This document shows positions 2,116 through 61,639 of a stretch of 64,000 bases of DNA, piece by piece. The position numbers were made by a program, and so were the translations under genes. The DNA comes from Phyllobates terribilis (lineage: Eukaryota). Position 1 is the first letter of the stretch; every line of letters begins with the position of its first letter. The notes below the pieces were generated by a model, which was given only the letters and a program-made list of their open reading frames with translations, was not told the DNA's origin and did no database searches. The stretch covers positions 226,796,001 to 226,860,000 of the forward strand of contig NW_027362771.1 of the NCBI RefSeq assembly GCF_046119375.1, given 5' to 3'.

Positions 2116-2269
2116 ATTAATTTCTGACATATGACAACCTGATGAACACTACACAACTGACGTAGTGTCCGTCAGGTTGTCTTACGTAAGTTGTGTAGTG
2201 TTCTTCAGGTTGACTTACACAACTGACGTATGACGCTACATTATAAGATTCAAAAATCAGCTATCACTT

Positions 2270-3700
2270 CCAAAAAGGGGGCACTTGTTGGGCATTTCCA
2301 CTGTTTAGGCACATCAGGAGCTCTGGGAACGTGACATGATGCCCGCAGACCGTTCCATCAAAGTCTGCATTCCAAAGCGTCACTCCTTCCCTTCCGAGCC
2401 CTGACATGCGCCCAAACCGTAGTTTTCTCCAACACATGGGGTATCAACGTACTTAGGAGAAATTGCACAACAACTTTTAGGGTCCAATTTCTCCTAGTGC
2501 CCTTGTGAAAATAAAAATATTGCGCCTAAAAGATCGTTTTTGTGGAAAAAAAATAGATTTTTTTTTTCACGGCTCTACGTCATAAACTTTTTCAAAAGTG
2601 CTCTCCACACATCTGAAGAAGTTCCCTGAGGGGTCTAGTTTCCAAAATTGGGTCACTTGTGGGGGGATTCCACTGTTTAGGCACATCAGGGGCTCTCTAA
2701 ATGCGACATTGGGTCCGCTGTCAATTCCAGCGAGTTTTGCATTGAAAACGTCAAATGGCGCTCCTTCCCTTCCGAGCCCTGCCGTGTGCCCAAACAATGG
2801 CTTTCCCCCACATATGAGGTATCAGCGTATTCAGGAGAAATTGCAAAACAACATTTGGGGTCCAATTTCTCCTAGTACCATCGTGAAAATAAAAATATTA
2901 TTGCTAAAAGATTGTTTTTGTGGAAAAAAAAGATTTTTTTTTACATTGCTCTACGTCATAAACCTTTGCAAAACAATTGGGGTTTCAAAGTGCTCGCCAC
3001 ACATATAAATAAATTTCCTGAGGGGTCTTGTTTCCAAAATGTGGTCAATTGTGGGGGGTTTCCCCTGTTTAGGCACATCAGGGGCTCTCCAAACACGACA
3101 TGGGGTCCGCTGTGAATTCCAGCAAGTTTTGCATTGAAACCGTCAAATGGTGCTCCTTCCCTTCTGAGCCCTGCCATGCACCCAAACAATGACTTTCTCC
3201 CACATATGAGGTATCAGCATACTCAGGAGAAATTGCACAACAACATTTGGGGTCCAATTTCTCCTAATACCCTCGTGAAAATAAAAATATTGCGGCTAAA
3301 AATGATTTTTTTTTTCACGGCTCTACGTCATAAACCTTTGCAAAACACTTGGGGGTTAAAAGTTCTCACCACACATCTAAATAAGTTCCCTGAGGGGTAT
3401 AGTTTTCAAAATGGGGTCACTTTTTGGGGATTTCCACTGTTTAGGCACATCAGGGGCTCTCCAAACGCGACATGGGGTCCACTGTGAATTCCATCAAGTT
3501 TTGCATTGAAAACGTCAATTGGCGCTCCTTCCCTTTTGAGCCCTGCCGTGCGCCCAAACAATGGCTTTCCCCCACATATGAGGTATCGGCGTACTTAGTA
3601 GAAATTGCACAACAACTTTTTGGGTCCAATTTCTCCTGGTACCCTTGTGAAAATAAAAAATTGGGGTCTAAAATAAAATTTTAGTGAAAAAAAAGTTAAA
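2270..3700. repeat. About 4 tandem units of ~370-390 bp inside the piggyBac 3' region
   Basis: The motif GTGCTC-CCACACAT...CCTGAGGGG recurs near 2598, 2990 and 3362. Confidence 0.85.
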
Positions 3701-4306
3701 TGTTCATTTTTTACTTTCACATTCAATCAATTGAAGCACGTGAAGGGTTAATAAACTTCTTGAATGTGTTTTTGAGTACCTTGAGGGGTGCAATTTTTAG
3801 AACGGTGTCACTTTTGGGTATTTTCTGTCATAAAGGCCCCTCAAAGTCACTTAAAATGTGATGTGGTCCCTAAAAAAATAGTTTTGTAAATTTTGTTGTA
3901 AAAATGAGAAATCACTGGTCAACTTTTAACCCTTATAACTCCCTAACAAAAAAAAATTTTGGTTCCAAAATTGTGCTGATGTAAAGTAGACATGTGGTAA
4001 ATGTTATTTATTAACTATTTTGTGTGACATATCTCTCTGATTTAAGGGCATGAAAATTCAAAGTTTGAAAATTGTAAAATTTTCAAATTTTTTGCCAAAT
4101 TTCCATTTTTTTCACAAATAAATGCAAGTGATATCGATGAAATTTTACCACAATCATGAAGTACAATATGTCACGAAAAAACAGTCTCAGAATCAGGGGG
4201 ATCCGTTGAAGCGTCCCAGAGTAATTACCTCATAAAGTGACAGTGGTCAGAATTGTAAAAATTGGCCTGGTCATTAACGTGCAAACCACCTTGGGGGGTA
4301 AAGGGG

Positions 4307-7408: not shown

Positions 7409-8581
7409 TTAAGTGTCTCAGATATGGTTCTGCCTTTAGGCTGTATTGAAATTTACTGGAGTTGGTGCAGGGCTGGCCATCACACCTGGGCTCTAGTGCC
7501 TAGGGGAGCTCAAAAAGTCCCCTTGGACCACATGATACGACTAATACTATTAAAGATCCACGATAGTTGGGTGCCCTGTTGGAGATGTATTGCGACTTAT
7601 GAGCACCAATGCCAATGACTGGAGTTCAAGATAATGTTAAATAGGAATATTTTACACTGTGGACACAGATGAGGGTCTATATTTATCTACACTGTCTGTT
7701 CCTACTCTATAGTACATTAGACTGTGCCTCATCATTTTTCGTTGACATTAATAGTCTTATGACCTTTCTCTGTCAATTGACTTAAGTTTTTTGCAGCAGC
7801 TATAAAGCACATACATCCTGCTGCAGATAATAAAGGAAGTATAAGAATTCCGTCAATATAGTCTTGTCAGGAAAGTCTTTAAGAGTGAGATGTATCAATA
7901 AAATGTAAAAAATAGACCAAATATTTTATCTGTCTTCTACATACCTGCGATGTTGGTGCCAGTTCTCCCGGGGCTCGTGTAACATTTTTATGCCACATGA
8001 GCCATGCAGCCAATCAGCAGCATTACTCACACCACCTTCAGATGTTTGTTCATCTGAAGGAAGTGAGATTGCAACTAGTGTTGAGCCACCCCCGTAGTGT
8101 TCGAGTTCGGTTCGGTTCGTCGAACACCCGTGTGTTCGCCGAACTGTTCGTCGAACTGTTCGTCGAACACCTTCGAACACCGTTAAAACCAATGGCAGGC
8201 AAACAAAAACACATAGAAACACATAGAAAACACCTTCAAAGGTGTCCAAAAGCTGACAAACTGCTCAGAAGACATAACTAACACATGGAAAAGTGACAAG
8301 TACATATAGTCATGCGAAAATAAAAGAGGTGGAGGAGTAAAAGGAGGGGGAGACACAGATATAGGCATGTCATGCCCTTCTAAAATCCAAAAAGTGAGAA
8401 GCCGACACGGCCAGTCCGCTCCTGCCCGTGCCACCTCCGTGTCGCCGGGTTTGTGCCAGAGCCGCGGTGAACCCTGACGGCCAGCCCCCCTCTCCCAATA
8501 CTGGTGCCTGTCCGCTGGTGGGTCGAGCGAGCCCCCCTGTGGTGGAGGCAGCTCTAAGCTTTTTAATTTAAATTGTCTCTC

Positions 8582-8852
8582 TAATTTGAATGAATACACT
8601 TTAAATCCATTTACAAGGATCTATTGGAGGGCAAGTCTCATGCCAGCAGCCGCGGTAATTCCAGCTCCAGTAGCGTCCACTAAAGCTGCTGCAGTTAAAA
8701 AGCTTTTATAAGGATCGAGCTCGGCTGTCCACCGCAAGGCATCCTACTGCCAGTCCCAGCCCCTATGCCTTGGGGTGCCTCCTGATGCTCTTCACTAAGT
8801 ATCCCATGGTCCCGAAGCATTTCCTTTGAAAAAATTAAGTGTCTAAACTACA
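8582..8852 (+). pseudogene. Degenerate 18S rRNA fragment (helix-18/530-loop region into V4) carried inside hAT copy 1
   Basis: The sequence TTGGAGGGCAAGTCT..TGCCAGCAGCCGCGGTAATTCCAGCTCCA.TAGCGT...GCTGCAGTTAAAAAGCT...CCCGAAGC.TTT.CTTTGAAAAAATTA matches vertebrate 18S rRNA as I recall it, with many substitutions. Confidence 0.92.
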
Positions 8853-9118
8853 GGTGGTGCAGCTTGCTTAACAGCCGGGATAATCCGCTCACTAGCAGAC
8901 ACTGCTACTAGGCACAAAGTATTTCCTGGGCTAGATGCAGTTAAAAATTTGTAATTAGATACTCTCGTTGGATGCTGAGAAAGCATTCCATAGAGTCTCC
9001 TGGCACGCCATATATGATTCTCTTAAAAAGCTTGGGGTAGGGGTCTAGGGGACCCTTTTATAGCCAAAATCACGGCCCTGTATCGCAATACGTCACCTAG
9101 GCTGAAGATAAATGGAAC

Positions 9119-10331
9119 TGTAGCACCCTGAGGGCTCGGTTGCTACAGACGTATTGCACCTCACCCAGAGGTGTGATATCTCACTCTCAGGTAAGGATGG
9201 AGTGTGGATCAGGACCCGACACCTGCATGCATTACACCACATTGCCGTGGGGCAGGGCGACCAATATGCCCCTGAGATGGGCACGACAGTCCCTGTCCCT
9301 GGCTGGAGTGGGGGGAGGGAACATTGAGGAAGGGGAACCCTGTAGTGCAGGAGCAGGGAGGAAGCAGTTCCTGGGTGCATTGAGAAGGGAGTATAAAAGG
9401 TGGGCACCATCTTAGTTCAGTGCAGAGAAGTCTGAGCAGAAGTGGCAGGGAGCAGGGGCTCTGCATGAGCTCTGCTCCGGAGGCGGGCCTAGTAACAGAG
9501 GCCCAGGCCTGGAAGAGGGAGAAGGAAGGAAGAGGAGCGGAGAAGGCTCCAGGAACGAGGAATGAAGGGATCCCAGGGGTGCGGACGGGCGAGTCGCCAC
9601 CGCACGCCCGAATCCACCTGCGTGGAGGGGTCAGGCCAAAGGGGGAGACCGGTCCCCGAACTAGTGGAGGCAGGAAACGACCCTCAGCTAGAAACCGGAG
9701 GCTCTGACATTTTATGTGGCGCAGCCCCTCGCTACACCCGCTAGGAAGGCACCACATAGGGTCAGGGAAACTGGCGCCAAGTTTACCAAGAGGAGGCCCG
9801 AGGCAGCCGGACAGAAGTGTTGGTAAGAAAGGCCAGACAAAGGACACACAAAGGGGGTCCTGTGAAGTGCTCCAAAGTTATCTGGGAGTTGTCTGAGCCC
9901 CTCACCTGGTGAGCACAGTACGACGTGGGCAGCCGTTACCTGCAGACGTGGTCTGGATAATAAGAACTGTGAGTAAAGGCCCTGAACTGCATCACTGACT
10001 CCGTGTCGTTACTGCTGCTGCCCTGCACCATCACCCCCATCCTCCGCATACACTGCCCTGAGGCTATACTCCTCCCGTGGGGAGTTATGCTACGCTCTGC
10101 TGCACCCACAACACCAGCCTCAGTGGTCTGCCGTGTAGCGGCGGTTCACTCTGACCGCAATCCACTGGTGGCGTAGTCGGACATTTAAACATGAAAACCA
10201 CATAAATAGTTCCGCCACTGGTTTGACCGCCCTGAGCCACGGAACTGGGTCGCCGCCACGAAGACTACAACCACCAGCATCCACCAAAAAGGGTCCGGCT
10301 CCGGGTGTCCCAAGGCCCAGGGGGTGCGTCA
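9119..10331 (+). mobile_element. Solo LTR (probably Gypsy-type) nested in hAT copy 1
   Basis: TG...CA termini, 4-bp TSD GAAC at 9115-9118 and 10332-10335, TATAAAA at 9392-9398, and no internal coding region. Confidence 0.8.
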
Positions 10332-10335
10332 GAAC

Positions 10336-10770
10336 ATTTTCACAATCACCAATGGGACAAGGCAGTGATGTCCTCTGTCCCCTCTCTTATACATCCTAGT
10401 GACGGAGCACCTGCTCTCATCAATTCGCCATAACCCCAATATTAGGTGGATTGAGGTGGGAGGCACCGAGTACAAGTGCTCTCTATTTGCTGATGATGTC
10501 CTAGTATATATCACTCAATCACATATATCCATCCATGCTGTTATGGCTGAAATAGATCACTTTGTTACATGGTAAAATTTTAAAATCAATGCAGCGAAGT
10601 CTGAGGCCCTCGATGTCTCCCTCCCCAAATCCATATAGGATTCCATCCAGTCCAACTTTCCCTTTGCCTGGCCCTCACAGGGTATCAAATACTTAGGAAT
10701 TCCTATTCATAGAGACCTCTCCCATCTATGTTATCTTAATTTTGGGCCCTTTATTGAACAACTCCATACA
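10336..10770 (+). pseudogene. L1-clade LINE reverse-transcriptase fragment inside the hAT
   Basis: Translates to GTRQ*CPLSPLLY...SLFADDVLVY...FKINAAKSEAL...IKYLGI. Confidence 0.88.
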
Positions 10771-10843
10771 GACCACGGTTGGCAAGTTAGAACTGTAAGA
10801 TTCACTACGTGAACCACTGGTGTTTTGTGGAAAAGCACATGTA

Positions 10844-12215
10844 CACTGCGTTCCAAATTATTATACAAAAAGTGTTTAGGAGTGATAAGGGAAGAATTTG
10901 TTTGTTTGTCAGTTAAACTCATTGATGGTGATGTGTGTCAGGGCTCTTTATATCACTGTAAGCAATTGCAGACACCTGTGCTAATTAGTTTGGCAGGTGT
11001 GTCCAATGAAAGGCAAGACTACTTAAGAAGGCTCTCTCACATTATTAAGCAGCCTACATTTTCTGCCAAAATGGGAAAGAAAAAGGATGTGTCGGCTGCT
11101 GAGAAGCAACAAATTGTGGAGTGTTTAGGTCAAGGCATGACTACAATCAACATTGTGCGATGATCAGGATGAAGTGTCTTGGCAATCAAGAAGTATGTAG
11201 CTGATTCACAGTACACACGTGTGCGTGCTGATAAGGGCAAATTGAGGACTCTTTCCTACAGGCAATTACGTCAGGTTGAAAGAGCAGCGGCAAAAAAGCC
11301 TTGTCATAGCAGCAGACAAGTTTTTGAAGCTGCTTGTGCCTCCAACGTCCCCCGAACAACAAGATGCAGGGTCCTTCAGAGGTTTGCAGCTGTGCATGCG
11401 CCATCCTGTCGACCTCCTCTATCCACTTCACACAAGCAGAAACGGCTCCAGTGGGCCAAACATTACATGAAGACTGATTTCAAAACTGTTTTGTTCACGG
11501 ATGAGTGCCGTGCAGCGCTCGATGGTCCAGATGGATGGAGTGGAGGATGGCTGGTTGATGGACACCCCACGCAAACACGGCTACAGCGCCAACAAGGAGG
11601 AGGTGGAGTAATGTTTTGGGCTGGAATCATGGGGAGAGAGATTGTCGGCCCCTTTAGGATCCCTGAAGGCGCTAAAGATGAACTCCATAATGTATGTGGA
11701 TTTTCTCAAACAGCACTTCCTGCCATGGTTCAAGAAGAAGAACCGTGTATTTCACAGCAAGATCATTTTTCTGCATGATAATGCACCATCTCATGCTGCA
11801 CATAAAACATCTGCATCTCTGGCTGATATGGGCATAAAAGGGGACAAACTTATGGTGTGACCCCCATGCTCCCCTGACCTCTACCCCATTCAGAACCTTT
11901 GGAGCATCATTAAAAGGAGTGTCTATGATGGCGGGAGGCAGTTCACATCTAAGCAACAGCTCTGGGAGGGTATTCTGTCCTCATGCAAAACAATTGAAGC
12001 AGAAACCATCCAAAACCTGACAAATTCAATGGACGAGAGAGTTCAGAAGCTCCTTTCGAACAAGGGGTCCTATGTGAAAATGTAACATCACCTAGAATAA
12101 AGTTTTGAGTTGAAAACTGTTTGATTTCAGTTTCTAACAACCTGCTAATGCTTATAATTTCAAAAATGACCATTTTTTTGGTCTTTATTAAAATGAAAAG
12201 GTTGATCGAAAAGTT
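10844..12215 (+). mobile_element. Tc1 element with left TIR and transposase pseudogene (~11071-12085), right TIR missing, inside hAT copy 1
   Basis: Starts TA-CACTGCGTTCCAAATTATT. Encodes MGKKKDVSAAEKQQIVE..., VLFTDEC, GGVMFWAGI, FLHDNAPSH and a degenerate PSPDL-PIENLW-like motif, with stops and frameshifts. Confidence 0.9.
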
Positions 12216-12543
12216 TGGGGGATCTAAGAGTGTGGCAACCCAGTAGTCATGATTACTTCGAATTCTGACAATATGAGGGTCATGCTGCAGGTAGTGCAGC
12301 AAGAAGGCACTTATGTGCCTTGCGCATCTCGGAGCCCCAAAATTATTTTCCGGGCTAGATGCAGCTAAAAATTATTTTTAATTTTAAATCTGGTGAAGCT
12401 TTAGTATAGATGGCCTAATAGGATCAGTGCTGCACACTGCTACAAAGCCCAAATTATTTTCCAGTCAAGATACAGATAAACATGATTAGTAATTTGAAAG
12501 CTTAAAACGGTTGGTAGGGTGATTTTAACCAATCATCAAGCTT

Positions 12544-15500
12544 TTACTCTCCCCAGGATGACACAGGGGTAGAAAAGTCGTTTCGGATCCATGATTTGTT
12601 CATCTTTATGAACGTGAGTCTGTCTACATTATCAGTGGAGAGCCGCGTGCGCTTATCTGTCAGCACACCACCAGCAGCGCTGAACACACGTTCAGACAGA
12701 ACGCTGGCTGCGGGGCATGACAAGATCTCCAAGGCGTAAGTGGCTAGCTCCGGCCATTTATCCAGATTGGAAGCCCAAAAAGAGCAAGGGTCCAGTGACA
12801 CAGTCGTGGCTTCAATGTTTACTTGGAGATACTCCTGTACCATCGTCTCTAGGCGTTGACTATGTGTCAGACTTCTTGTCTCCTGTGGCCTTGCAAAGGA
12901 TGGGCTAAAAAAGTGGTGAAATGATTCCGCAAAATTGATGTTACCAGCAGATACTGTGGTTCTGTTACGGTTTGAGTGCTGAACACTTGACGGTCCCACG
13001 GTTGGCAAGTTGGAACTGTGAGATTCACTACGTGCACCACTGGTATTTTGTGGAAAAGCACATGTAAGATTCTGCAACAGTCTCTGCTGATACTCCTGCA
13101 TGCGTGCATCCCTTTCTATGGCAGGAATAATTTCTGCAAATTTACTTTTGTACCGGGGATCTAACAGTGTGGCAACCCAGTAGTCAGGATTATTTCTAAT
13201 TCTCACAATTCGAGGGTCATGTTGCAGGTAGTGCAGCAAGAAGGCACTCATGTGTGTTGCGCATCCAGGAGCACCAAGTCCCTGTTGTGTTGGTGGCGAG
13301 GTAACAATCATGCTTCCTTCCTCTGTCCTCTCCCCCCAACCTCGCACAACAGAAATGTGATCAAGGTCTCCCTCATCTGATGAGTCTTCCATCAGTTCGT
13401 CCTCCACTTCTTCCTGGGCTCCTGCACCTTCCTCACTAGTTTGGCTGCTACCATGTGCCCTGGTAAAACCATCTCCCCCACCCTCACATGCCTGCCGCCT
13501 TGGTGCTGCCGACCGTCTGGACCTTGCAGATGTTAGCCCTTCCGCATACAACTCCTCCTCCTCTACTTCCTCCACCTCCTCTTGTGCCACCACCTGACTC
13601 CGAATTCTGTTTAACATGTGCTCCAGCATGTAAATCACCGGAATAGTCATGCTGATAATGGCATCATCAGCACTAAACATCTTCGTCGCCATTTCAAAAC
13701 TGTGCAGAAGGGTGCATAGGTCCCTGATCTGAGACCACTCCTCCAGCGTGATTTGCCCCACCTCTGAATCTCGTTGGCCCAGGCTATACGTCAGAACGTA
13801 TTGCACCAGGGCTTGTCGGTGCTGCCACAGTCGCTGCAACATGTGCAGAGTTGAATTCCACCGGGTAGGCACATCGCATTTTAGCCGGTGAAGTGGCAGG
13901 CCCAACGACTTCTGTAGAGATGTAAGTCGCTGAGCTGCGGGATGCGAATGGCGGAAGTGAGCACACAGTGACCGTGCCCTCTGCAGAAGGCCATCTAGTC
14001 TGGGATAGTGGGCTAAAAATTGCTGGACAACCAGGTTCAACACGTGAGCCATACAAGGCACGTGTGTGACATTGCCCCGGCGAAGGGCCGCACCCAGGTT
14101 TGCAGCATTGTCGCACATGGCCTTCCCTGGTTTCAGGTCCAGTGGAGACAACCATTCATGAAATTGGTTCTCCAGAGCTGACCACAACTCCTCAGCTGTG
14201 TGACTCACATTTCCCAGACATTTCAATGTAAAAACCGCCTGATGACGTTGAGCCCTACTGCCAGCATAGTAAGGAGGTGTGCAGGATCCCTTCTGCGCAG
14301 TTAGAAAGCTTGTGGCATGACCAGACAGGCTTTGGGTGCAGGTGGAAGACCGAGAGGAGGTTGAGGAGGCAGAAGCAGTGGAGGAACTTTGACATAAAGA
14401 GGATTGACGCACAACTCGTGGGGACGGCAAGACTTGGACAGCAGCCCCTTGTCCTGCTGTCACCATAGTTACCCAGTGCCCAGTCAGCGACATGTAACGC
14501 CCCTGTCCATGCCTACTCGTCCAAGTGTCTGTGGTGAAATGCACCCTGTCACACACAGAGTTTCTCAAAGAAGCGGTGATGTTGTGTGCGACATGCTGGT
14601 GGAGCGCAGGCACACCTTTCTTTGAGAAGTAGTGCCGACTGGGCATCTGGTACTGGGGCACTGCGACGGACATAAGGTCTCGAAAATCCTCTGTGTCCAC
14701 CAGGCGGAAAGGCAGCATTTCTGTAGCCAAGAGCTTGCAGATGGTGAAATTCAACCTCTTAGCTTTCTCATGGCTAGGAGGAAATGGTCTTTTACTTGTC
14801 CACATCTGAGGGACCGAGGGCTGGCTATTGTGCTTAGACGGGGTTGATAAGGGTGTCCCCGGCAATCTGCCGGTCTGTGAGGAAGATGCAGGCGGACATG
14901 TTAGGTTGCCTTGATCCAAAGGTGGTGCTATCGATGCCGGACAGCGCTCAACACCAGCTGGTGTTACCACCTCCAAAGAAAATGATGACCTGCCAATCAC
15001 GCTGGCTGTTGCGGGTAAAGAGGTGGCAGGTCTGCGCCCCAAAACAGGTGTGACTGCTGTCCCCCCAGTCACAGAGGATGAAGAGGCCGCGGATGCACAA
15101 GATATGGCAGACGGTGATTGGCCCGGCCGGCTAGGCCGCATTGTAGCACACTGAGCTTCCCACTGCAACTTATGCTTCATGTCCATGTGCCGGTTCATGC
15201 ATGAAGTACTCAAACTATGTATTTTTTGGCCTCTACTTAGCTTTTGCTGACAAATGTTACAGATAACACGAGTTGGGTCATCTTTATCGATCTGAAAAAA
15301 TGCCCAGGCTATGCAAGGCTTAGCACCCATGCGACCTGAAGAGCCACCACGACTTGTGGTGAGAGGCAGAGTTGTGTTTGAGGATGCAGTTGTTGACGTG
15401 CTTCAAGTACTACGTCTCTGTCCAGGAAGGCGCAACCTGACCTCGTCGTCACTAGCATCTTCCTCCACCTCCTCTGCTGACCTCATCTCTTGGCTGACTG

Positions 15501-16245
15501 TGGGTTGACAGTAAGTGGGATCTCCGACCTCATCATCATCACCCTGTGCGTTATCACACCCGTCGTCCTCAGAGCCAACCTGTTCCTGCCCTGACAAAAA
15601 ACTAAAGTTGTCGCTCCAATCAGGTATTTGAGTCTTATCATCGTCTTCCTCATTGTCTCCACCAACAGGAGTTACAGTTTGGGAATGAGGGTCTACATTA
15701 TGGTCAGAACCTTCTGCGTCTGGTCCTGGATCCGACTCATAAAGATTCTGGGCATCAGTGCAGATCATTTCCTTGTCTGGATTCACAGAAGCGCTGGAGC
15801 CGACCTCTGATTCCCAGGCTATAGTATGAGTAAACAGCTCTGCAGACTCAACCATCTGTTCTACCTCATACTCAGACGGGCAGCTGGAGATTTGGGAGCT
15901 GTGAGGAAGCAAGTGCGATTTGGGTGACACCTTTGAGGACTGGAGTATTTGTGATGTTGAAGTTGATGTGGAGGAGAGCCCACTTAAAGGAGCACTTGAT
16001 ATCCGTTGAAGCACCTGCTGTTTTTGTGCCTCATCTGGAATTTGTAGCGATTGGCGTGGCCGTAAGAAAGGGATCTTATCACATTGTCCGCTAAAAGAAG
16101 TAGACATTTTAGTTTGGCTGGAAGATGGTCTTTCTTCTGTAGATGTTACTGTTGCTTTAAAACCTACCCCACGGACACAACCTTTTTTCCCCTTCCCAAC
16201 ACGCCTATTCCCCTTTCCACCAGCAGCAGGCCTTTTTCCACTCAT
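12544..16245 (-). pseudogene. hAT transposase with BED zinc finger, 1233 codons broken by one in-frame nonsense codon at 15403-15405
   Basis: ORFs 15403-16245 and 12544-15330 are in the same frame; TGA here corresponds to GGA in the other copies. Motifs: AWAFF..CNIC..RHMDMKH (BED), FTTDTWTS, CDNAAN, CMAH, TRWNST, SERVFS, and the hATC dimerisation region. Confidence 0.95.
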
Positions 16246-16360
16246 TTTGGTGGTTAACTAATTCACAACTCTGGAGTTGTTTGCACAAAAAAACAATGGA
16301 TGGTAACCGAGCAGAGCTGAGTGGCCAAACTGTGGTATTAGGCCAAAACTATTGGCTGGG

Positions 16361-17858
16361 TTAGATGCAGAAAAAAATTATTTTGAATTTGCAACCTGAT
16401 GGAGGTCAGTATAGATGGACTAATAGACCAAGTCCCACACACTGCTAGAAGCCCAAATATTTTTTCAGAGCTAGATGCAGAAAAAAATTATTTTTAATTT
16501 GCAACCTGATGGAGGTCAGTATAGATGGACTAATAGACCAAGTCCCACACACCGCTAGAAGCCCAACTATTTTTTCAGAGCTAGATGCAGAAAAAAATTA
16601 TATTCAATTTGCAACCTGCTGGAGGTCAGTATAGAAGGACTAATAGAACAAGTCCCACACACTGCTAGAAGCCCAAATATTTTTTCAGAGCTAAATGAAG
16701 AAAAAAATTATTTTTAATTTGCAACCTGATGGAGGTCAGTATAGATGGACTAATAGACCAAGTCCCACACACTGCTAGAAGCCCAAATATTTTTTCAGAG
16801 CTAGATGCAGAAAAAAATTATTTTTAATTTGCAACCTGATGGAGGTCAGTATAGATGGACTAATAGACCAAGTCCCACACACTGCTAGAAGCCCAAATAT
16901 TTTTTCAGAGCTAGATGCAGAAAAAAATTATTTTTAATTTGCAACCTGATGGAGGTCAGTATAGATGGACTAATAGACCAAGTCCCACACACCGCTAGAA
17001 GCCCAACTATTTTTTCAGAGCTAGATGCAGAAAAAAATTATATTCAATTTGCAACCTGCTGGAGGTCAGTATAGAAGGACTAATAGAACAAGTCCCACAC
17101 ACTGCTAGAAGCCCAAATATTTTTTCAGAGCTAAATGAAGAAAAAAATTATTTTTAATTTGCAACCTGATGGAGGTCAGTATAGATGGACTAATAGACCA
17201 AGTCCCACACACTGCTAGAAGCCCAAATATTTTTTCAGAGCTAGATGCAGAAAAAAATTATTTTTAATTTGCAACCTGATGGAGGTCAGTATAGATGGAC
17301 TAATAGACCAAGTCCCACACACTGCTAGAAGCCCAAATATTTTTTCAGAGCTAGATGCAGAAAAAAATTATTTTTAATTTGCAACCTGATGGAGGTCAGT
17401 ATGGATGGACTAATAGACCAAGTCCCACACACTGCTAGAAGCCCAAATATTTTTTCAGAGCTAGATGCAGAAAAAAATTATTTTTAATTTGCAACCTGAT
17501 GGAGGTCAGTATAGATGGACTAATAGACCAAGTCCCACACACCGCTAGAAGCCCAACTATTTTTTCAGAGCTAGATGCAGAAAAAAATTATATTCAATTT
17601 GCAACCTGCTGGAGGTCAGTATAGAAGGACTAATAGAACAAGTCCCACACACTGCTAGAAGCCCAAATATTTTTTCAGAGCTAAATGAAGAAAAAAATTA
17701 TTTTTAATTTGCAACCTGATGGAGGTCAGTATAGATGGACTAATAGACCAAGTCCCACACACTGCTAGAAGCCCAAATATTTTTTCAGAGCTAGATGCAG
17801 AAAAAAATTATATTCAGTTTGCAACCTGATGGAGGTCAGTATAGATGGACTAATAGAA
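16361..17858. repeat. 110-bp tandem satellite (~13.6 monomers) upstream of the transposase ATG
   Basis: CTAGATGCAG recurs at 16471, 16581, 16801, 16911 and onward, with a 110-bp period. Confidence 0.97.
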
Positions 17859-20476
17859 TGATGCTATGCCCAAAAGATTTTACTTCACTAGGTGCAGTAA
17901 AAAAATTGGTATTCTATACACAGGTGTTATATCTTGCAACACAGATAGGCTACTCCACTGACTAACACACTCTGCAATAGGCCAAAAAGGATTAGCTTTG
18001 CTAGATTCAGCCAAATGCTGTGAAAAAAACTTGCACAGCACTGGCACAGACCTGCCTGGCAAAAACTGATAGGAACTCATGTAACCTAGTCCTGAAAAGG
18101 ACTCCAATTACAATTAGTCTTTACTCCCACAACCTATCTATTTAAGAGCACAGACCTCCCTGATAAAAGTCATAGGAAATGCTGTAACCTAGTCCTTAAA
18201 AGGACTGCAATCACAACTATTCCCTACTCCCAAGCTATCTGTAGATTTGTGCGAAAATTGGCTTGAAATTAACAAGGTATAGCGCACACAGCAACAGCGG
18301 TGCCGTCTAACACGCAGCTGCAGCAGTGAGAAAATGGTGGCGACGGGGAAAATGGCTTGGTCTTATAGGGCAAGGACATGTGACATACACTGCCAATGAC
18401 ACATGCCCTTGCTTGTGTGAAAAAAAGCACTTTGCTCCGTGTGTGCGCTGCTGATAGGCTGACAGATTGCACCTTCCCACTGCAAATGCGGGAAAGAGAA
18501 AAAAAAATGGAGATCTTCATTGTTCCTGCAGAGATCCATCCCCTGCCCCTCCCCCCACCCCGCTGTACACTCAAACTGCGTATTAACATTAATTTTCATC
18601 ATTACTGAGAAAAAATCCAGTTATGATTTTGGTGCACGAACAGTTATCGAACATAACCTCGAACAGCCGAATTTTTCTCAAATTGTTCGTGTTCGCCGAA
18701 CGGCTCGAACACCGCCCAAAACAGCTCAAATTTGAGATTGGCGAACAGTTCGAGTAGAACAACGCTCATCTCTAATTGCAACAGCTCAATACCTGCCACT
18801 GATTGGCTGCAAGGCTCCTGTGATATAATATTGTCACGCAAGCCCTGAGAGTCCCAGAGCCGGCATCCCTGGAATGGTGCCAGTACAGGAGTTGAGTGGA
18901 GGGTATATTTATTTTACAGAGGGGAATATAGTATTTAGAAAGGTCCTAGTATTGGACAATCCATTTAAATATCAAAATAGTTACACTGTCATGATTGGAT
19001 ATATTTCAGATCCTGAATGTTACATTTGAAGGACATCTGTGAATCCAAGGCATTAAGGAAATAATATCTCTAGTTTTTAAGAATAAATTGCTGTTTCTCA
19101 CTATGATGATGGAAAATGTATAATGCTATTGCCAGGAATACTGAACTGATAGCCCGCTAGGTGAAGGACTTACACAGACTCCACAGTGGCAAAATTATAG
19201 ATTATTTGCAATGAAGATTATTTAGAAAAATACTTAATTTTGAAATTAGGAAGCAAATGACCAAGAAAAAAATGGAAGGTGGAAATGGCCTTAAAATTAG
19301 CATAATTAGATGTTGCAGCCATAACTGAACTCTAGATATGGGGGAAATAGTTAGATGTTTTTCCTCCTCATATGAGGAGAATAGTACTAGACAGTTGGGG
19401 AGCCCTGTTGAAGATTATGCATCAATTCCCTTGAGGTTCAAGTTACATTTATGTCTTTCAAAGCTACTGTAAATAATTAGGAGGGCAATATTCTCCAGTA
19501 TATACATGTGAGAAGAAGAGCACTTGGTATGATATATGACATTGCGTTCTGTAACTTTCTCACAGGGCTTGCTAAATGTACTTGGAGGTTTATTCTGTAT
19601 TATGCAAATATACTTAATGAAAATCTAGTACATTCGCTTTATCTGCTTGTTTATACATTTTGATAGGAGGAAAACAATGTTTCACTGCAATCAACAGTTT
19701 TAAATGTTAATGCCTCGAGCCTCATTTGAAAGGGTACCTGCCAATACAATGCCATTTGTTTCTTGCAGATAAATATTTGACCTTTAAAAGCAAAATGTTT
19801 CTATATCAGTGTAAATTATAACATTACTGATCAGAGTGAAAAAGGTTGAGCTCATAAAGAGCTTTTTCTATAACTGTTACTAAAATCCTTATATGACTTT
19901 ATGAGTTATTTATAATAGGTAACATTAAAATATGAATTGTATCAAAATTAACCAAAAATGTCTGAATGGTATCCCCAGCTGGATTTAATAATGTTAAGAC
20001 TGACTCCACATTTCACCATTTCACAGACCACGCATGGACTGCAATTTCTGGGCCGATCACAGGTCTCCTGATGGAAAAAGTCTCATATATGCATATGAAT
20101 CTGTTAATTTGAGTCAAGAGACCCATTGAAGAGGTGACACAATGATACCACCAGGCAGGACGCAAATACAGTACAGTAGATGAGTAGGCAGAAACAAAAC
20201 ACCAGATTCATTGAAGGGCAGAGGATTTTATGCCGGAAACTAACAGTTCTTATAATGATAACGGCAATAACAGATACAAGGAGGAATAGCTGGAATGTGC
20301 CACATGAGCTGCACTCCTGCTATTGCAATAAATTGTTAAATCAAGTGAACCAGGTCTGGCACAGACCAGTCTGGCTATGAAGGGTCACTTTTAAGGGTCT
20401 AAAAATGAAATATGCCAGAAATGTAACCCCCTCACCACCACTCTTCATCTGACAATCTGTTCTGCTTCACCCACAG

Positions 20477-24860: not shown

Positions 24861-25289
24861 ATAAAATGTTCCCAATAAAAGCTTCAACTCAGTCCTCAAA
24901 AAAAGCTAGTCCCCACTCAGGTCTGTCATCTGTTAAAAATATAAGGGACTTCCAAGTTACTGGTAGCAGAAAGGCTCTGGAAAAGCGAAATGGCCCTTGC
25001 CCCCCAAAAGAAATTCAGAAAATTTTGTGCTCCCAAATCCAAATGCCTATTCTACAATAATTTGTTCTCCAATTGTCAAATTCAGATCTCACCGTATGGC
25101 TGAGCGGTACGATACAGCCACATATGGGGTATTGCCACTTTTAGAAGAAATTGTGTGACACATTTCAGCACCATTTTTACCCATTGCCCTGTGTGAAAAT
25201 GTAAAATCTGAGGGTAAAACATTTTTTTGTGGTAAAGATATAATTATGCTTTTTTCACTGTCCAATGGTATAAATTTAAAAATTAAAAA

Positions 25290-26870
25290 ATACTCACTAC
25301 TTCCTTAGATGAATTCCTTGAGAGGTGTAGTTTACAAAATGGGGTCACTTGTGGGGGTTTCTGCTGTTTCGGCATGTCAGCGACTCTTCAAATGTGACAT
25401 GGTGTCTGCCACCTATCCCAGCCAACATAGCGCTCCTTTCTCTTCCGAACCCTGCCGTACACCAAAGCAGTGGTTTTCCCCCACATATGGGGTATCGGCG
25501 TACTCAGGAGAAATTGCACAACAAATTTCATGGTGCAATTTATCCTATTACCCTTATGATAATGCAAAATTAAGGGATGAAAAACGGTTTTGTGGGAAAA
25601 ATTAGAAAATTTTATTTTTACAGCTCAATATTATAATCTTCTGTGAAGCACCTTGGGGTTCAAGGTGCTCACCACACATCTAGATAAGTTCCCTAAGGGG
25701 TCTAGTTTCCAAAATGGTGTCACTTGTGGGGGGTTTACACTGTTTAGGCACATCAGGGGCTCCCCAAATGCAACATGGCATCCGCTAATTATTCAAACAA
25801 ATTTTACATTCAAAAAGTCAAATGGCGCTCCTTCCCTTTCAAACCGTGCCGTGCGCACAAACAGTGGTTTGCCTCCACATATGGGGTATCAGCGTGTTCA
25901 GGAGAAATTGCAAAACAAATTTCATGGTACAATTTTTCCGATTACCCTTATGATAATGCAAAATTAAGGGATGAAAAACGTTTTTGTGGGAAAAATGTGA
26001 AAATGTTATTTTTACAGCTCAATATTATAAACTTCTGTGAAGCACCTTGGGGTTCAAGGTGCTCACCACACATCTAGATAAGTTCCCTAAGGGGTCTAGT
26101 TTCCAAAATGGTGTCACTTGTAGGGGGTTTCCACTGTTTAGGCACTTCAGAAGCTCTCCAAACGCAACATGGCGTCCGCTAATTATTCAGACAAATTTTA
26201 CATTCAAAAAGTCAAATGGCGCTCCTTCCCTTTCAAACCCTGCCGTGCGCCCAAACAGTGGTTTGTCTCCACATATGGGGTATCAGCGTGTTCAGGAGAA
26301 ATTGCACAACAAATTTCATGGTGCAATTTTTCCTATTACCCTTATGATAATGCAAAATTAAGGGATGAAAAACGTTTTTGTGGGAAAAATGTGAAAATTT
26401 TATTTTTACAGCTCAATATTATAAACTTCTGTGAAGCACCTGGGAGTTCAAGGTGCTCACCACACATCTAGATAAGTTCCCTAAGGGGTCTAGTTTCCAA
26501 AATGGTGTCACTTGTGGGGGGTTTCCACTGTTTAGGCACATCAGGAGCTCTCCAAACGCAACATGGTGTCTGCTAATTATTCAGACAAATTTTATATTCA
26601 AAAAGTCAAATGGCGCTCCTTCCCTTCCGAACCCTTCAGTGCGCCCAAACAGTGGTTTTCCCTCACATATGGGGTATCAGCATGCTCAAGAGAAATTGCA
26701 AAAAATAATTTGGGGTCCATTTTTTCCTGTTACCCCTGTGAAAATAGAAAAAATTGGGTCTAAAGTAACATTTTTGTGAAAAAAGTTAAATGTTAATTTT
26801 TTTCTTCCACATTCCAAAAATTCCTGTGAAGCACCTGAAGGATTAATAAAGTTCTTGAATGTGGTTTTGA
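25290..26870. repeat. About 4 copies of a 394-bp tandem repeat
   Basis: AAGGTGCTCACCACACATCTAGATAAG at 25662, 26056 and 26450. Confidence 0.92.
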
Positions 26871-28010
26871 GCACCTTGAGGGGTGCAGTTTTTAGAATGG
26901 TGTCACTTTTTGGTATTTTCTGTCATAAAGACCCCTCAAAGTGACTTCAAATATGATGTGGTCCCTAAAAAAATGTTTTTGTAAATTTTGTTGGAAAAAT
27001 GAGAAATTGCTGGTCAACTTTTAACCCTTATAGCTCCCTAACAAAAAAAAATTTTGGTTCCAAAATTGTGCTGATGTAAAGTAGATATGTGGGAAATGTT
27101 ATTTATTAACTATTTTGTGTGAGATATCTCTCTGATTTAAGGGCATGAAAATTCAAAGTTAGAAAATTGCAAAATTTTCAAAATTTTTGCCAAATTTCCG
27201 ATTTTTTCACAAATAAACGCAAGTTATATCAAAGAAATTTTACCAGTATCATGAAGTACAATATGTCACGAAAGCACAGTCTCAGAATCAGGGGAATACG
27301 TTGAAGCGTTCCAGAGTAATTACTTCATAAAGTGACAGTGGTCAGAATTGAAAAAATTGGCCCGGTCACGAAGGCAAAAACAGGCTCTGGTGCGAAGTGG
27401 TTAATAAGCAGTACTTAATAAGCTCTATTTCCCTGAGAATAAACATTTTTTTCTATTGCTGTTTGAGTATATTTGGTCATTTCATGAGAACTTTTGAATA
27501 GAGCACGTGATAGCTTAAAATCCATTCTAATTATAGCTATGGAATTTGCATTATGACATCTCCTGACTTTTCTTTGAACTTAGCTTCCAGTTGACTTGTA
27601 TGTTTTAAAAGTGTGGAATGAACTTATTGCATAATAGCACAATAGGCACACCATTTTATTTCATTGGCATGCACACTTTTTCAAGTCAACGGGAAGAACT
27701 CACTAAATTATTATCTGACAACGTGTGGAGCAAAGGTACATGAAATGCTGTTACATACTTGAATTTGTTACCATAGGAACACACACTGTAATTATTACTT
27801 AAGCAATGAACCATTCAAATGAAATTTTTGAGACAATGAATTTCCAAGAGAAGCATATTACATTTAACATACCTAGGAATTATTAAATCAAAATACTAGT
27901 CTAATGGGCTCCGTCATATATAGGAGGTCAATTCCTTCATGAAAGGTAAAATGCATATTTGCATTAATAAATCTTCATTTGATGCCAGCTCAACAATGTT
28001 TTAATTTTAA

Positions 28011-32432: not shown

Positions 32433-34038
32433 CAGTGGGTACGGAAAGTATTCAGACCCCTTTAAATTTTTCACTCTTTGTTTCATTGTAGCCATTTGGT
32501 AAATTCTAAAAAGTTCATTTTTTTCTCATTAAAGTACACTCTGCACCCCATCTTGACTGAAAAAAGGTAGAAATTTTTGGAAATGTATTCAAAAAGAAAA
32601 ACTGAAATATCACATGGTTATAAGTATTCAGACCCTTTGCTCAGTATTGAGTAGAAGCACCCTTTTGAGCTAGTATAGCCATGAATCTTCTTGGGACTGA
32701 TGCAACAAGTTTTTCACACCTGGATTTGGGAATCCTCTGCCATTCTTCCTTGCAGATCCTCTCCAGTTCCGTCAGGTTGGATGGTGAACGTTGGTGGGCA
32801 GCCATTTTCAGGTCTCTCCAGAGATGCTCAATTGGGTTTAGGTCAGGGCTCTGGCTGGGCCAGTCAAGAATAGTCACAGAGTTGTTCTGAAGCCACTCCT
32901 TTGTTATTTTAGCTGTGTGCTTAAGGTCATTGTCTTGTTGGAAGGTAAACCTTCGGCCAAGTCTGAGGTCCAGAGCACTCTGGAAGAGGTTTTCATCTTA
33001 GATATCTCTGTACTTGGCCGCATTCATGTTTCCTTCAATTGCAACCAGTCGTCCTGTCCCTACAGCTGAAAAACACCCACATAGTGTGATGCTGCCATCA
33101 CCATGTTTCACTGTTGGGATTGTATTGGGCAGGTGATAAGCAGTGCCTCATTTTCTCCATACATACCGCTTAGAATTATCACCAAAAAGTTCTATCTTTG
33201 TCTCATCAGACCAGAGAACATTATTTCTCATAGTCTGGAAGTCCTTCATGTGTTTTTGAGCAAACTCTATGCGGGCTTTCATATGTCTTGCATTGAGGAG
33301 AGGCATCCGTCGGGCCACTCTGCCATAAAGGCCCAACTGTTGGAGGGCTGCAGTGATAGTTAACTTTGTGGAGCTTTCTTCCATCTCCCTACTGCATCTC
33401 TGAAGCTCAGCAACAGTGATCTTGGGGTTCTTCTTTACCTCTCTCACTATGTCTCTTCTCCCATGATTGCTCAGTTTGGCTGGATGGCCAGGTCTAGGAA
33501 GACTTCTGGTGGTCCCAAACTTCTTCCATTTAAGGATTATGGAGGCCACTGTGCTCTTAGGAACCTTGAGTAATGCAGACATTCTTTTATAACATTAGCC
33601 AGATGTGTGCCTTGCCACAATTCTGTTTCTGAGCTCCTTGGGTAGTTCCTTTGAGGTCATGATTCTCATTTGGTCTGACATGCACTGTAAGCTGCATGTG
33701 TGTGTCTTTCCAAATCAAGTCCTATCAGTTTAATTAAACACAGCTGGACTCCAATGAAGGAGTAGAACCATCTCCAGGAGGATCACAAGGAAATGGACAG
33801 CATTAAATATGAGTGTCTGAGCAAAGGGTCTGAATACTTATGACCATGTGATATTTCAGTTTTTCTTTTTTAATAAATTTGCAAAAATTTCTACCTTTCT
33901 GGGTTTTTTCCAGTCAAGATGGGGTGCAGAGTGTACTTTAATTAGAAAAAAAATGAACTTTTTAGAATTTAATAAATGGCTGCAATGAAACAAAGAGTGA
34001 ACAATTTAAAGGGGTCTGAATACTTTCCGTACCCACTG
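32433..34038 (-). mobile_element. Full-length Tc1 element (1.6 kb) with long ITRs and a degenerate transposase
   Basis: TA TSDs at 32431-32432 and 34039-34040. Terminus CAGTGGGTACGGAAAGTATTCAGACCCC occurs at both ends. ORF pieces 33148-33582 (WSDETKIELF) and 32641-32877 (WPSQSPDLNPIEHLW). Confidence 0.95.
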
Positions 34039-34268
34039 TAGGTGAAAGCATATAAAGGCGCAAAACTAGACAAAAAGCAGCCACAAAGGCAATTATGAAT
34101 TTGGGCCTATACAGTGGTTTGTAAAAGTTTGGCCACCCCTGGTTAAAATTACTGTTATTGTGAACAGGTAAGCAAGTTCAAGATGAAATGATCTCTAAAA
34201 GGCCTAAAGTTAAACTGACACAGTTCCTTTGTATTATAGGCAAAAAAATATATATTGTCATATATATA

Positions 34269-35455
34269 CAGGACAGACCAAAAGTTTGGACACACTCATT
34301 TAAAGATTTTTCTGTATTTTCATGACTATGAAAATTGTACATTCACACTGAAGGCATCAAAACTATGAATTAACACATGTGGAATTATATACAGTACGTA
34401 ACAAAAAAAGTGTGAGACAACTGAAAATATGTCTTATATTCTAGGTTCTTCAAAGTAGCCACCTTTTGCTTTGATAACTGCTTTGCACACTCTTGGCATG
34501 CTCTTGATGAGCTTCAAGAGGTAGTCACCGAAAATGGTCTTCCAGCAATCTTGAAGGAGTTCCCAGAGATGCTTAGCACTTGTTGGCCCTTTTGCCTTCA
34601 CTCTGCGGTCCAGCTCACCCCAAGCCATCTCGATTGGGTTCAGATCTGGTGACTGTGGAGGCCAGGTCATCTGGCGTAGCACTCCATCACTCTCCTTCTT
34701 GGTCAAATAGCCCTTACACAGCCTGGAGGTGTGTTTGGGGTCATTGTCCTGTTGAAAAATAAATGATGGTCCAACTAAACGCAAAACGGATGGAATAGCA
34801 TGCCGCTGCAAGATGCTGTGGTAGCCATGCTGGTTCAGTTTGCATTCAATTTTGAAAAAACCTCCTCCTCCATGCTTCACGGTGGGAACCAGGCATGTAG
34901 AGTCCATCCGTTCACCTTTTCAGCGTCGCACAAAGACATGGTGGTTGGAACCAAAGATCTCAAATTTGGACTCATCAGACCAAAGCACAGATTTCCACTG
35001 GTCTAATGTCCATCCCTTGTGTTCTTTAGCCCAAACAAGTCTCTTCTGCTTGTTGCCTGTCCTTAGCAGTGGTTTCCTAGCAGCTATTTTACCATGAAGG
35101 CCTGCTGCACAAAGTCTCCTCTTAACAGTTGTTGTAGAGATGTGCCTGCTGCTAGAACTCTGTGTGGCATTGACCTGGTCTCTAATCTGAGCTGCTGTTA
35201 ACCTGCGATTTCTGAGGCTGGTGACTCAGATAAACTTATCCTCAGAAGCAGAAGTGACTCTTGGTCTTCCTTTCCTGGGGCGGTCCTCATGTGAGCCAGT
35301 TTCTTTGTAGCGCTTGATGGTTTTTGCAACTGCACTTACGGACACTTTCAAAGTTTGCCCAATTTTTCGGACTGACTGACCTTCATTTCTTAAAGTAATG
35401 ATGGCCACTCGTTTTTTTTTACTTATAATTTGTATTATGGCAAGAAAAAAGCATA
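34269..35455 (-). mobile_element. Tc1 element of the same family as 1-569, internally deleted and lacking its left ITR
   Basis: ORF 34434-34907 (QQDNDPKH, WPPQSPDLNPIE, ...GGYFEEPRI*) and ORF 35226-35462. Inserted at a TA run. Confidence 0.9.
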
Positions 35456-35719
35456 TATTCACTGATGCCTTTTTGCCACTTTTTTGACTATTGTCAGGGT
35501 ATGATCCTATACAGGGACAAAGGCATATTTTCTAGCTTTTAATATACTTGTTATGTGTATTGTCAATTTTATATTAAGGATTGCCAAATCTTTTATTTTT
35601 GATAGTAAAAGTTAAGTTTTAAATCCACTATAGTTGCTATATATGATTTTGAACTGTGGACTTGGCAGGAGAGGCAACCCACACATATTGCCTCCCCTTG
35701 AATTTTGCTGTTAATGTTC

Positions 35720-37083
35720 AATAATAATCAGTTCCAATGCTTTCTGGCTGATGTTTTGGTCACTTTTAAATGTTGGTTGTGCTTTCACACTCGTGGTAGC
35801 ATGAGACGGACTCCACAACCCACAGAAGTTGCTCAGGAAGTGCAGCTCATCCAGGATGGCACATCAATGTGAGCTATGGCAAGAAGGTTTGCCGTGTCTG
35901 TCAGCGCAGTAGCCAGAGGCTGGAGGCGCTACCAGGAGACAGGTCAGTACACCAGGAGACTTGGAGGGGGCCATAGGAGGGCAGCAACCAAGCAGCAGGA
36001 CCGTTACCTCTGCCTTTGTACAAGGAGGAACAGGAGGAGCACTGCCAGAGCCCTGCAAAATGACCTCCAGCAGGCCACAAATGTGCATGTGTCTGCACAA
36101 ATGGTTAGAAATCGACTCCATGAGGGTGGTATGAGGGCCCGACGTCCACAGATGGGGGTTGTGCTCACAGCTCAACACTGTGCAGGACGCTTGGCATTTG
36201 CCACAGAACACCAGGATTGGCAAAGTCGCCACTGGCACCCTGTGCTCTTCACAGATGAAAGCAGGTTCACACTGAGCACATGTGACAGACGTGACAGAGT
36301 CTGGAGATGCCATGGAGAGTGATCTGCTGCCTGCAACATCCTTCAGCATGATCTATTTGGTAGTGGGTCAGTAATGGTGTGGGGTGGCATTTCTTTGGAG
36401 GGCGTGTAGCCCTCCATGTGCTCGCCAGAGGTAGCCTGACTGCCATTAGGTACCGAGATGAGATTCTCAGACCCCTTGTGAGACCATATGCTGGTGCGGT
36501 TGGCCCTGGGTTCCTCCTAATACAGGACAATGCCAGACCCCATGTGGCTGGAGTGTGTCAGCAGTTCCTGCAAGATGAAGGCATTGAAGCTATGGACTGG
36601 CCCGCCCGTTCCCCAGACCTGAATCCGATTGAGCACATCTGGGACATCATGTCTCGCTCCATCTACCAACGTCACGCTGCACCACAGACTGTCCAGGAGT
36701 TGGCGGATGCTTTAGTCCAGGTCTGGGAGGAGATCCCACAAGAGACCATCCACAACCTCATCAGGAGCATGCCCAGGCGTTGTAGGGAGGTCATACAGGC
36801 ACGTGGAAACGACACACAATACTGAGCCTCATTTTGACTTGTTTTAAGGACATTACATCAAAGTTGGATCAGCCTGTAGTGTGTTTTTCCACTTTAATTT
36901 TAGGGGTGACTCCAAATCCAGGCCTCCATTGGTTAATAAATTTGATTTCCATTGATGATTTTTGTGTGATTTTGTTGTCAGCGTATTCAACTTTGTACAG
37001 AACAAAGTATTCAATGAGAATATTTCATTCATTCAGATCTAGGATGTGTTATTTGAGTGTTCCCCTTATTTTTTTGAGCAGTG
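35720..37083 (+). mobile_element. Tc1 element with transposase pseudogene at ~35801-36825 and a right TIR
   Basis: ORFs 35876-36322 (VLFTDESRF) and 36379-36825 (QDNARPH, WPARSPDLNPIEHIW). Ends GTGTTCCCCTTATTTTTTTGAGCAGTG followed by TA. Confidence 0.92.
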
Positions 37084-40360: not shown

Positions 40361-40759
40361 TCAAACGTGAACCTCATATTCCCTGCTAAGGCCATGAGGT
40401 TCCAATGTCTTTAAGGTGAAGATCCAGAAGGCCTCCCTTTCTTTGAGCCTCTGGATCCTGTTTCCCCCTCTCCTGCCTGGTGGGACATGATCAATTACCA
40501 GGAAGCGTAATTGTGCGATAGAGTGATGGTGGGCAAGGAAATGGTTAGGGATGGGTAATAAATTGTACTTACATCGAATAGTGGATTTATGTTTGCTGAT
40601 CCTATCTCTGATGTGCTGTGTTGTTTCGCCAACGTACCCTAGACCGCATGGACACTTGATCAAATGCACTACGAATGAAGATTCACATGTTAAGTAACCC
40701 TTGACTGGGAACCTTTTGCCTGTAAGAGGATGTGTAAATGTACTTCCTCGAGTTATGTT
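40361..40759 (-). pseudogene. GIY-YIG endonuclease domain of PLE ORF2, separated from the RT by the hAT insertion
   Basis: Translates to VVHLIKCPCGLGYVGET..RDRISKH...LKEREAFWI...PHGLS. The expected Tyr and Asn consensus positions read His and Ser. Confidence 0.92.
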
Positions 40760-41265
40760 TAGTGTTGAGCCACCCCCATAGTGTTCGAGTTCGGTTCGGT
40801 TCGTCGAACACCCGTGTGTTCGCCGAACTGTTCGTCGAACTGTTCGTCGAACACCTTCGAACACCGTTAAAACCAATGGCAGGCAAACAAAAACACATAG
40901 AAACACATAGAAAACACCTTCAAAGGTGTCCAAAAGCTGACAAACTGCTCAGAAGACACAACTAACACATGGAAAAGTGACAAGTACATATAGTCATGCG
41001 AAAAGAAAAGAGGTGGAGGAGTAAGAGGAGGGGGAGACACAGATATAGTCATGTCATGCCCTTCTAAAATCCAAAAAGTGAGAAGCCGACACGTTCAGTC
41101 CGCTCCTGCCCGTGCCACCTCCGTGTCGCCGGGTTTGTGCCAGAGCCGCGGTGAACCCTGACGGCCAGCCCCCCTCTCCCAATACTAGTGCCTGTCCGCT
41201 GGTGGGTCGAGCGAGCCCCCCTGTGGTGGAGGCAGCTCTAAGCTTTTTAATTTAAATTGTCTCTC

Positions 41266-43013: not shown

Positions 43014-43027
43014 GAACATTTTCATCA

Positions 43028-61595: not shown

Positions 61596-61639
61596 GGGGA
61601 TATAGCCTAGGAGCCTTGGTTACAACCAAATAGAAATAA

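Follow-up and report, generated by a model that had tools for sequence, protein, structure and literature searches.

Autonomous hAT transposons filled with the debris of other elements are already known, and the closest described system is hobo_AC of Anolis carolinensis, an autonomous hAT of 9-15 kb packed with fragments of other elements (Novick et al., PMC3014272). Here we analyse a window of 64,000 bp from Phyllobates terribilis (contig NW_027362771.1, positions 226,796,001 to 226,860,000), which carries two copies of a hAT element of this kind, copy A (8076-18774; 10,699 bp) and copy B (40760-58984; 18,225 bp), both listed without strand. As far as the accessible text on hobo_AC goes, the two elements are alike in their 11-bp terminal inverted repeats (TIRs; TAGGCTTGAGC in hobo_AC, a similar sequence beginning TAG and ending TGAGC here), a target site of the form NTRNNYAN, their youth, their structural lineages, recombination between copies and the inflated copy numbers of their passengers (PMC3014272). 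The likeness is one of description, and the same text mentions neither a ribosomal DNA (rDNA) piece nor a long interspersed nuclear element (LINE) targeting one. They differ greatly in scale, with 290 autonomous copies of hobo_AC against ~65,000 here, about 200-fold more and with the long form dominant; the long hobo_AC elements are described there as low in copy number, perhaps because selection removes them (PMC3014272, accessible text). The cargo of hobo_AC was interpreted there as captured genomic DNA rather than as insertions, whereas here intermediates show nested insertion.

Multicopy Pack-TIRs, such as Pack-hAT-N8_XT of Xenopus, are re-transposing TIR elements with foreign DNA, for which template switching has been proposed (Tan et al., PMC8277862). 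As described in the sections available, they hold 0.1-5 kb, have one traceable parental copy and reach few copies, whereas the element here is coding and numbers tens of thousands; only its rDNA piece fits that pattern. With Hermes/Ac hATs (PDB 4D1Q) the element shares a BED finger, DDE core, CxxH and RW motifs and a dimerisation domain, but the Hermes transposase has 612 amino acids against 1233 here, about twice as many, and the passengers and internal satellite are particular to the present element. Large hAT content in poison frogs has been reported, in the parts of those studies available, at superfamily level (PMC11152451, PMC6278860, PMC12822217). In the literature covered, with Repbase, subscription papers and supplements outside its scope, we found neither this hAT family nor a frog LINE targeting 18S described. 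What sets the present element apart is the scale, the intermediates of nested insertion, and the rDNA piece together with its LINE.

It is highly probable that copies A and B belong to an Ac-family hAT of ~65,000 copies, whose left arm gained dead passengers stepwise. Its mobilisation was likely the work of its own transposase, which would need nothing but the two ends. Copy A is flanked on each side by ATTGCAAC (8068-8075 and 18775-18782, + strand) and copy B by GTTATGTT (40752-40759 and 58985-58992, + strand), each a perfect 8-bp target-site duplication as in the hAT superfamily. The TIRs are short, as in other hATs, and imperfect, with two mismatches (9 of 11 bases matching between 8076-8086, + strand, and 18764-18774, - strand, of copy A). 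Similarity between the copies begins at 8076/40760 and stops within 3 bases of 18774/58984, beyond which the flanks are unrelated to each other; between these limits cargo order and junctions are identical, and divergence is even along the full length (0.6-2.7% per bin, ~1.6% overall). An initial annotation, made from the letters of the window, had placed the two copies at exactly these coordinates, each with its own duplication and both with the same ordered cargo (18S, solo long terminal repeat (LTR) with GAAC, L1 reverse transcriptase (RT), dead Tc1), and all of this is borne out. Its proposal that a unit of more than 10 kb moved as one, with the cargo already in place, is likewise upheld by the separate duplications, unrelated flanks and shared junctions. 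Overlooked were a 5' external transcribed spacer (ETS) piece, the relic of a related transposase in which the Tc1 sits, a satellite of 110-bp units and, within copy B, a duplication of 4.1 kb.

The initial annotation also considered A and B, which lie 22 kb apart in the same orientation, compatible with local hopping. The family does hop locally: of eight neighbour pairs examined elsewhere, three consist of copies that are each other's closest or almost closest relatives, and gaps under 33 kb are seen 16 times among 99 against 9.6 expected. A and B, however, are 1.1-1.8% apart, while relatives of A at 0-0.7% occur elsewhere; when 30-38 copies are ordered by closeness to A, B comes 24th-27th, and at this copy number chance alone would put a neighbour within 32.7 kb in 18% of cases. 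This ranking rejects a local hop, barring later gene conversion of A. Segmental duplication is rejected as well: the two copies have different duplications and flanks, the right flank of A is single-copy above 79% identity, and B splits a continuous retroelement open reading frame (ORF), whose frame resumes across the duplication. That frame encodes an RT (58985-60408, - strand) and continues left of 40759 into a GIY-YIG-like stretch; the retroelement is presumably Penelope-like. A Pfam search returned no match for the interrupted GIY-YIG-like stretch, nor for the short L1 piece of the cargo. An inverted pair at 60048-61958 and 62090-64000 (97% over 1.9 kb) represents the 5' part of the retroelement cut by B. 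With regard to an assembly artefact, all 30 bins of 9000-16300 are covered, with the same junctions, by contigs that bear three other organism labels and stem from three studies. One such contig runs through the LTR, L1 and relic and differs at 14 positions, so the structure was not created by this assembly. We therefore regard it as very improbable that A and B are donor and daughter of a local hop, a segmental duplicate or an artefact; they are independent dead insertions from a recent burst. Copy B, with cargo as in A and a frameshifted transposase, is longer because its 110-bp satellites are larger and because it holds the internal tandem duplication of 4.1 kb (47840-56051, listed without strand), which comprises the transposase 5' part plus satellite, the coding parts being 99.3% identical.

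In copy A the cargo begins with the rDNA piece, which consists of 162 bp of 5' ETS (8398-8559, + strand; 83% identical to sequence ~570-410 bases upstream of this genome's 18S) and a decayed 266-bp 18S stretch (8577-8842, + strand; 18S positions 559-833). The latter scores 71.6 bits in Rfam and is 86% identical over 276 bp to the genome's own 18S. It is followed by the final 113-bp unit of the ancestral left-arm repeats (8848-8960, + strand), at the end of which an L1 was inserted. The L1 RT piece is now in two parts (8962-9118, the 5' end of a 5'-truncated insertion, and 10336-10772, both + strand), and its motifs read through across a solo LTR of 1,213 bp (9119-10331, listed without strand) that has TG..CA ends and the 4-bp duplication GAAC on each side. 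Relatives of this LTR (65-80%) are found as direct pairs, one of which encloses a 1,389-amino-acid protease-type ORF. Beyond the L1 lies the transposase relic, in two parts on the - strand (10773-10843, 94% identical to 12996-13066, and 12218-12340, 89% identical to 13155-13277), with a dead Tc1 (10844-12205, + strand) inserted at a TA within it; the Tc1 is frameshifted, has lost its right TIR and gives a weak Pfam match (E 2e-4, below cut-off). A short array of 110-bp units (12337-12502, + strand) has one unit more in B, and the 110-bp satellite of the right arm (16362-17857, + strand; 13.6 units in A) is the chief source of length variation. The L1, LTR and Tc1 each bear their own insertion hallmarks. 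The rDNA piece alone has a traceable parental copy in the manner of a Pack-TIR, its 83-86% identity to the genome's own ETS and 18S being lower than the 90% used by Tan et al. in the part of that study available (PMC8277862). Most of the cargo is thus nested insertion, and the appearance of captured host DNA is confined to the rDNA piece; the Pack-type likeness drawn in the initial annotation holds for that piece and fails for the L1, LTR and Tc1.

Older subfamilies preserve intermediates of this assembly. Copies of the oldest stage (88-92% identical) lack the L1, LTR and Tc1 but already have the TIR, the rDNA piece, the units of 113 bp and the transposase. An L1-complete subfamily shares the L1 5' junction of copy A, and its L1 continues in frame beyond 10772 to a polyadenylation signal and poly(A), with a ~17-bp duplication of the hAT's own repeat at 5 of 5 loci; the L1 arrived by ordinary retrotransposition into the element. 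In a pre-LTR subfamily the L1 is cut at 10772 and the relic/Tc1 block is present. Nine of its first 12 loci extend to the left terminus, six of those nine with perfect duplications. The LTR-bearing copies are 0.8-1.4% diverged among themselves and 3-5% from the pre-LTR copies, in all four segments, and fused forms, in which a dead left part is joined to a second arm, are present among the relatives.

A different explanation is that a single copying event took up the entire cargo from a genomic site where old element fragments already lay, the Pack-type scenario proposed for hobo_AC and multicopy Pack-TIRs. The rDNA piece is without insertion hallmarks, its ETS being joined to 18S across a gap of ~970 bases; the relic shows 88-94% identity whichever transposase subfamily it is compared with, and so derives from a different, older copy; and there is short microhomology at the relic/array junction. 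These features would suit such a capture, but the LTR-free form exists within the same hAT, reaching the left terminus at nine loci, and the older copies hold the L1 in full with its duplication: at least two passengers came separately and by their own mechanism. As an origin of all the cargo, capture in one step is ruled out for the L1 and LTR by the intermediates, a verdict that does not cover the rDNA piece and the relic/Tc1 block, and overall we consider it quite unlikely.

Related copies show further rearrangement. At loci L071 and L073 the Tc1 has been removed by one and the same deletion, which runs from the relic (10773-10843) to the matching transposase stretch 12996-13066, and since each Tc1-deleted copy has its own duplication, the deleted form moved again. 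The passengers fixed in sister subfamilies are different ones: at the 8394 position a piece of 830 bp, which we take to be RT-like, a 1.4-kb piece, presumably tyrosine-recombinase-like, and, in four loci out of five, a solo LTR that always interrupts the transposase gene at one position. In one subfamily, all five loci (L268-L272) have a reversed right arm at the expected left end, which suggests two-right-end elements.

Junction patterns were counted in the 10.57-Gb assembly, each paired with a reversed-pattern control, and all controls gave 0. With up to two mismatches, the LTR 5' junction is matched 64,777 times assembly-wide, the relic/Tc1 junction 66,168 times and a transposase 3' motif 81,584 times; the older left arm is matched 13,529 times and the pre-LTR junction, exactly, 3,944 times. 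Older arms and relic/Tc1 junctions together number 79,697, close to the transposase count, although some elements hold the older arm twice. Copies were sampled by position, as every fifth of the first 100 exact matches (n=20) and every tenth of another first 100 (n=10). Both ends and a perfect duplication of their own were found in 15 of 20 and 4 of 10 of these (19/30), and a perfect duplication is also present in 7 of the 10 best matches, alongside the six of nine pre-LTR copies. The bounded copies (n=20) average 10.4 kb, which corresponds to ~676 Mb, or 6.4% of the assembly, if they are typical, a figure that is probably on the high side. The subfamily likely comprises ~65,000 near-identical copies, ~0.6-0.7 Gb or 5-6% of the genome, and the census of copies with independent 8-bp duplications that had been proposed beforehand as a check comes out in favour of the mobile unit. 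Copies frequently lie within or directly beside copies of the same family (loci L031, L037, L043, L071, L231, L233, L243 and L245). Loci L031 and L033, 0.8 Mb apart on one contig, have the same rearranged copy and flanks and are likely a segmental duplicate, so not every match is an independent insertion.

The transposase gene (12544-16245, - strand) has 1233 codons in intact siblings and encodes a BED finger, DDE core and dimerisation domain. Pfam PF02892 and PF05699 score above cut-off, Hermes is matched at E 3e-18 (PDB 4D1Q), and the protein relatives are anuran 'ZBED4/6-like' sequences at 30-50%. Both window copies are broken, A by an in-frame stop at 15403-15405 and B by a 1-bp frameshift near 47506. 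An uninterrupted frame of 1226-1233 amino acids is present in 8 of 20 and 3 of 10 position-sampled copies (11/30) and in none of nine pre-LTR copies. When the 17 intact frames (11 position-sampled and six best matches) are aligned, D, D, E, CxxH and W are kept in all, and the R of RW in 16. The ratio of non-synonymous to synonymous change (dN/dS) is 0.34 between subfamilies (16 synonymous and 18 non-synonymous differences), 0.45 against older forms and 0.74 within the burst; these ratios indicate purifying selection between subfamilies and near-neutral change within the burst. By eye, the 30 duplications have T at position 2 in 24 and A at position 7 in 25, both together in 20, and a central TA in none, that is, nTnnnnAn and not nnnTAnnn. 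The former, in an 8-bp duplication, is the rule for the Ac family in the available text of a preprint (bioRxiv 10.1101/2022.09.16.508221). Judged by site preference, domains and residues, the element is an Ac-family hAT. The possession of its own predicted transposase, claimed in the initial annotation, is supported for the lineage, where siblings have intact frames, and not for A and B.

The assembly of the element probably followed five steps. An rDNA piece (ETS and 18S) would have been captured first, likely by template switching during repair, and a 5'-truncated L1 would then have retrotransposed into the left-arm repeats. Recombination or deletion between copies may next have replaced the 3' half of the L1 with a relic containing the dead Tc1 and 110-bp units. 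An LTR element would have inserted afterwards and been reduced to a solo LTR, and a recent burst would have come last. Because the whole cargo is placed beyond the stop codon of the transposase and leaves the end sequences outside it, the passengers are likely cheap, neutral hitchhikers. The opposite view, that the cargo aids the element (as a silencing shield, as a promoter or through better packaging) and that each step was selected, draws on the fact that the most loaded subfamily is also the largest (~65,000 against the 3,944 pre-LTR junctions and 13,529 older arms), but in exact-match counts young bursts exceed old ones regardless. Cargo divergence is equal to or greater than transposase divergence, copies that have lost the Tc1 or more still have their own duplications (3/15), and sister subfamilies have spread with other passengers. 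We think selection for the cargo unlikely.

Several points weigh against stepwise gain by a self-mobilising lineage, or against its scale. The order of steps was read from nested presence and divergence, without a rooted tree, and a relic-bearing copy free of the Tc1 did not turn up, no direct search for one having been made. All position samples were drawn from exact motif matches in the first 51 Mb of one contig, a choice biased towards young copies. No perfect matched duplication was found within 20 kb for 11 of the 30 sampled copies, one failing by a single base and the others being nested, truncated or interrupted. The genome share, derived from the mean of 20 bounded copies and uncorrected for haplotig inflation, is possibly too high. 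The dN/dS estimate is built on just 34 differences, an open frame alone does not make a working enzyme, and RNA amounts to 1 read per 12.7 million in one library, under another organism label and of unknown tissue, which says nothing on the germ line.

As a by-product, the 18S piece has likely become the main target of a separate LINE group. The site (8658-8659, + strand) is empty in copy A and filled in other copies. In seven fetched loci a LINE 3' end interrupts the 18S piece, always at one base, against 57 uninterrupted alignments (the loci overlap), and the LINE/18S junction occurs 730 times at that single base; the LINE copies were collected via the junction itself, so these counts give no share of copies elsewhere. 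Nineteen of the first 20 junctions are in hAT copies, of all four stages, and only one of the 19 is LTR-bearing despite that subfamily's large majority, which age or target decay could explain. Clustered at 90% identity, the LINE 3' ends of these 20 form 13 groups, and members of one group occur in hAT copies of different stages, a pattern suggestive of independent insertions. The same base is also occupied in three dispersed true 18S pseudogenes, and for this reason it is likely the 18S sequence as such that is targeted. Seven exact junctions have the letters of true 18S (three hAT copies, three dispersed pseudogenes and one unassigned), and none of them is in an rDNA-array contig, although an exact pattern and collapsed arrays make this a weak test. 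Copy B (window 41337) and one pre-LTR copy (L141) have one base missing just upstream of the target site.

LINE coding sequence, 54-86% related, is present in all 20 upstream stretches fetched, which are those of 17 of the first 20 junction loci (without L184, L186 and L189) and of the three pseudogenes. ORF2 has APE, RT and zinc-finger domains, and ORF1 has ZCCHC3-type and CCHC domains. We take this layout, with an RNA-binding and CCHC ORF1 and an ORF2 of APE, RT and zinc finger, to be that of the Tx1 clade. The 5' junction, seen in 4 of the 20 stretches and at the L037/L151 locus, shows the loss of a few bases and no clear duplication. Relatives are present in other frogs, and the homologues bear generic names only. 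The 18S-specific elements R7 and R8 are known from invertebrates. Site-specific LINEs inside DNA transposons have precedents in Tx1L within Tx1D of Xenopus and in Tx1-clade LINEs and SINEU within Mariner-N4; the targets given in the accessible text are piggyBac, U2 and microsatellites, not 18S, whereas here the target is captured host 18S that is also struck outside the transposon (PMC4494074, PMC6719617). We would give even chances to a broader reading, in which the hAT, by multiplying the 18S piece ~80,000-fold, has become the principal home of a so far undescribed clade of vertebrate LINEs specific to this 18S site and may divert insertions from working rDNA, while the 10-kb coding transposon itself stands at ~6% of the genome.

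The remainder of the window holds a piggyBac-type transposase piece (PF13843) at 1011-1727, two related arrays at 2268-4273 and 25120-27368 (372- and 394-bp units, ~80% alike) and a cluster of decayed Tc1-like pieces at 32641-36825.

From the perspective of genome evolution, a single coding subfamily of ~0.6-0.7 Gb compares with 52-86 Mb for each of the three most abundant families of the strawberry poison frog, as given in the available text (PMC6278860), and offers a direct test case for the retention of long repeats in giant frog genomes. If all copies carry the cargo, repeat landscapes would be distorted by ~79 Mb of 'LTR', 88 Mb of 'Tc1', 38 Mb of 'L1', 29 Mb of 'rDNA' and 97 Mb of satellite. 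Cargo scored as separate recent bursts would bear on comparative claims, in the part of the work available, about the classes that drive anuran genome size (PMC12822217), and ~79,000 18S-like candidates (a rough count) would skew estimates of rDNA copy number. The natural movement of 8-13 kb units makes the predicted enzyme a candidate large-cargo vector. If the broader reading of an 18S-LINE habitat at ~6% of the genome is true, the expectation that long cut-and-paste elements stay rare would be overturned, and a host target would have been carried out of the rDNA by one parasite and then colonised by another.

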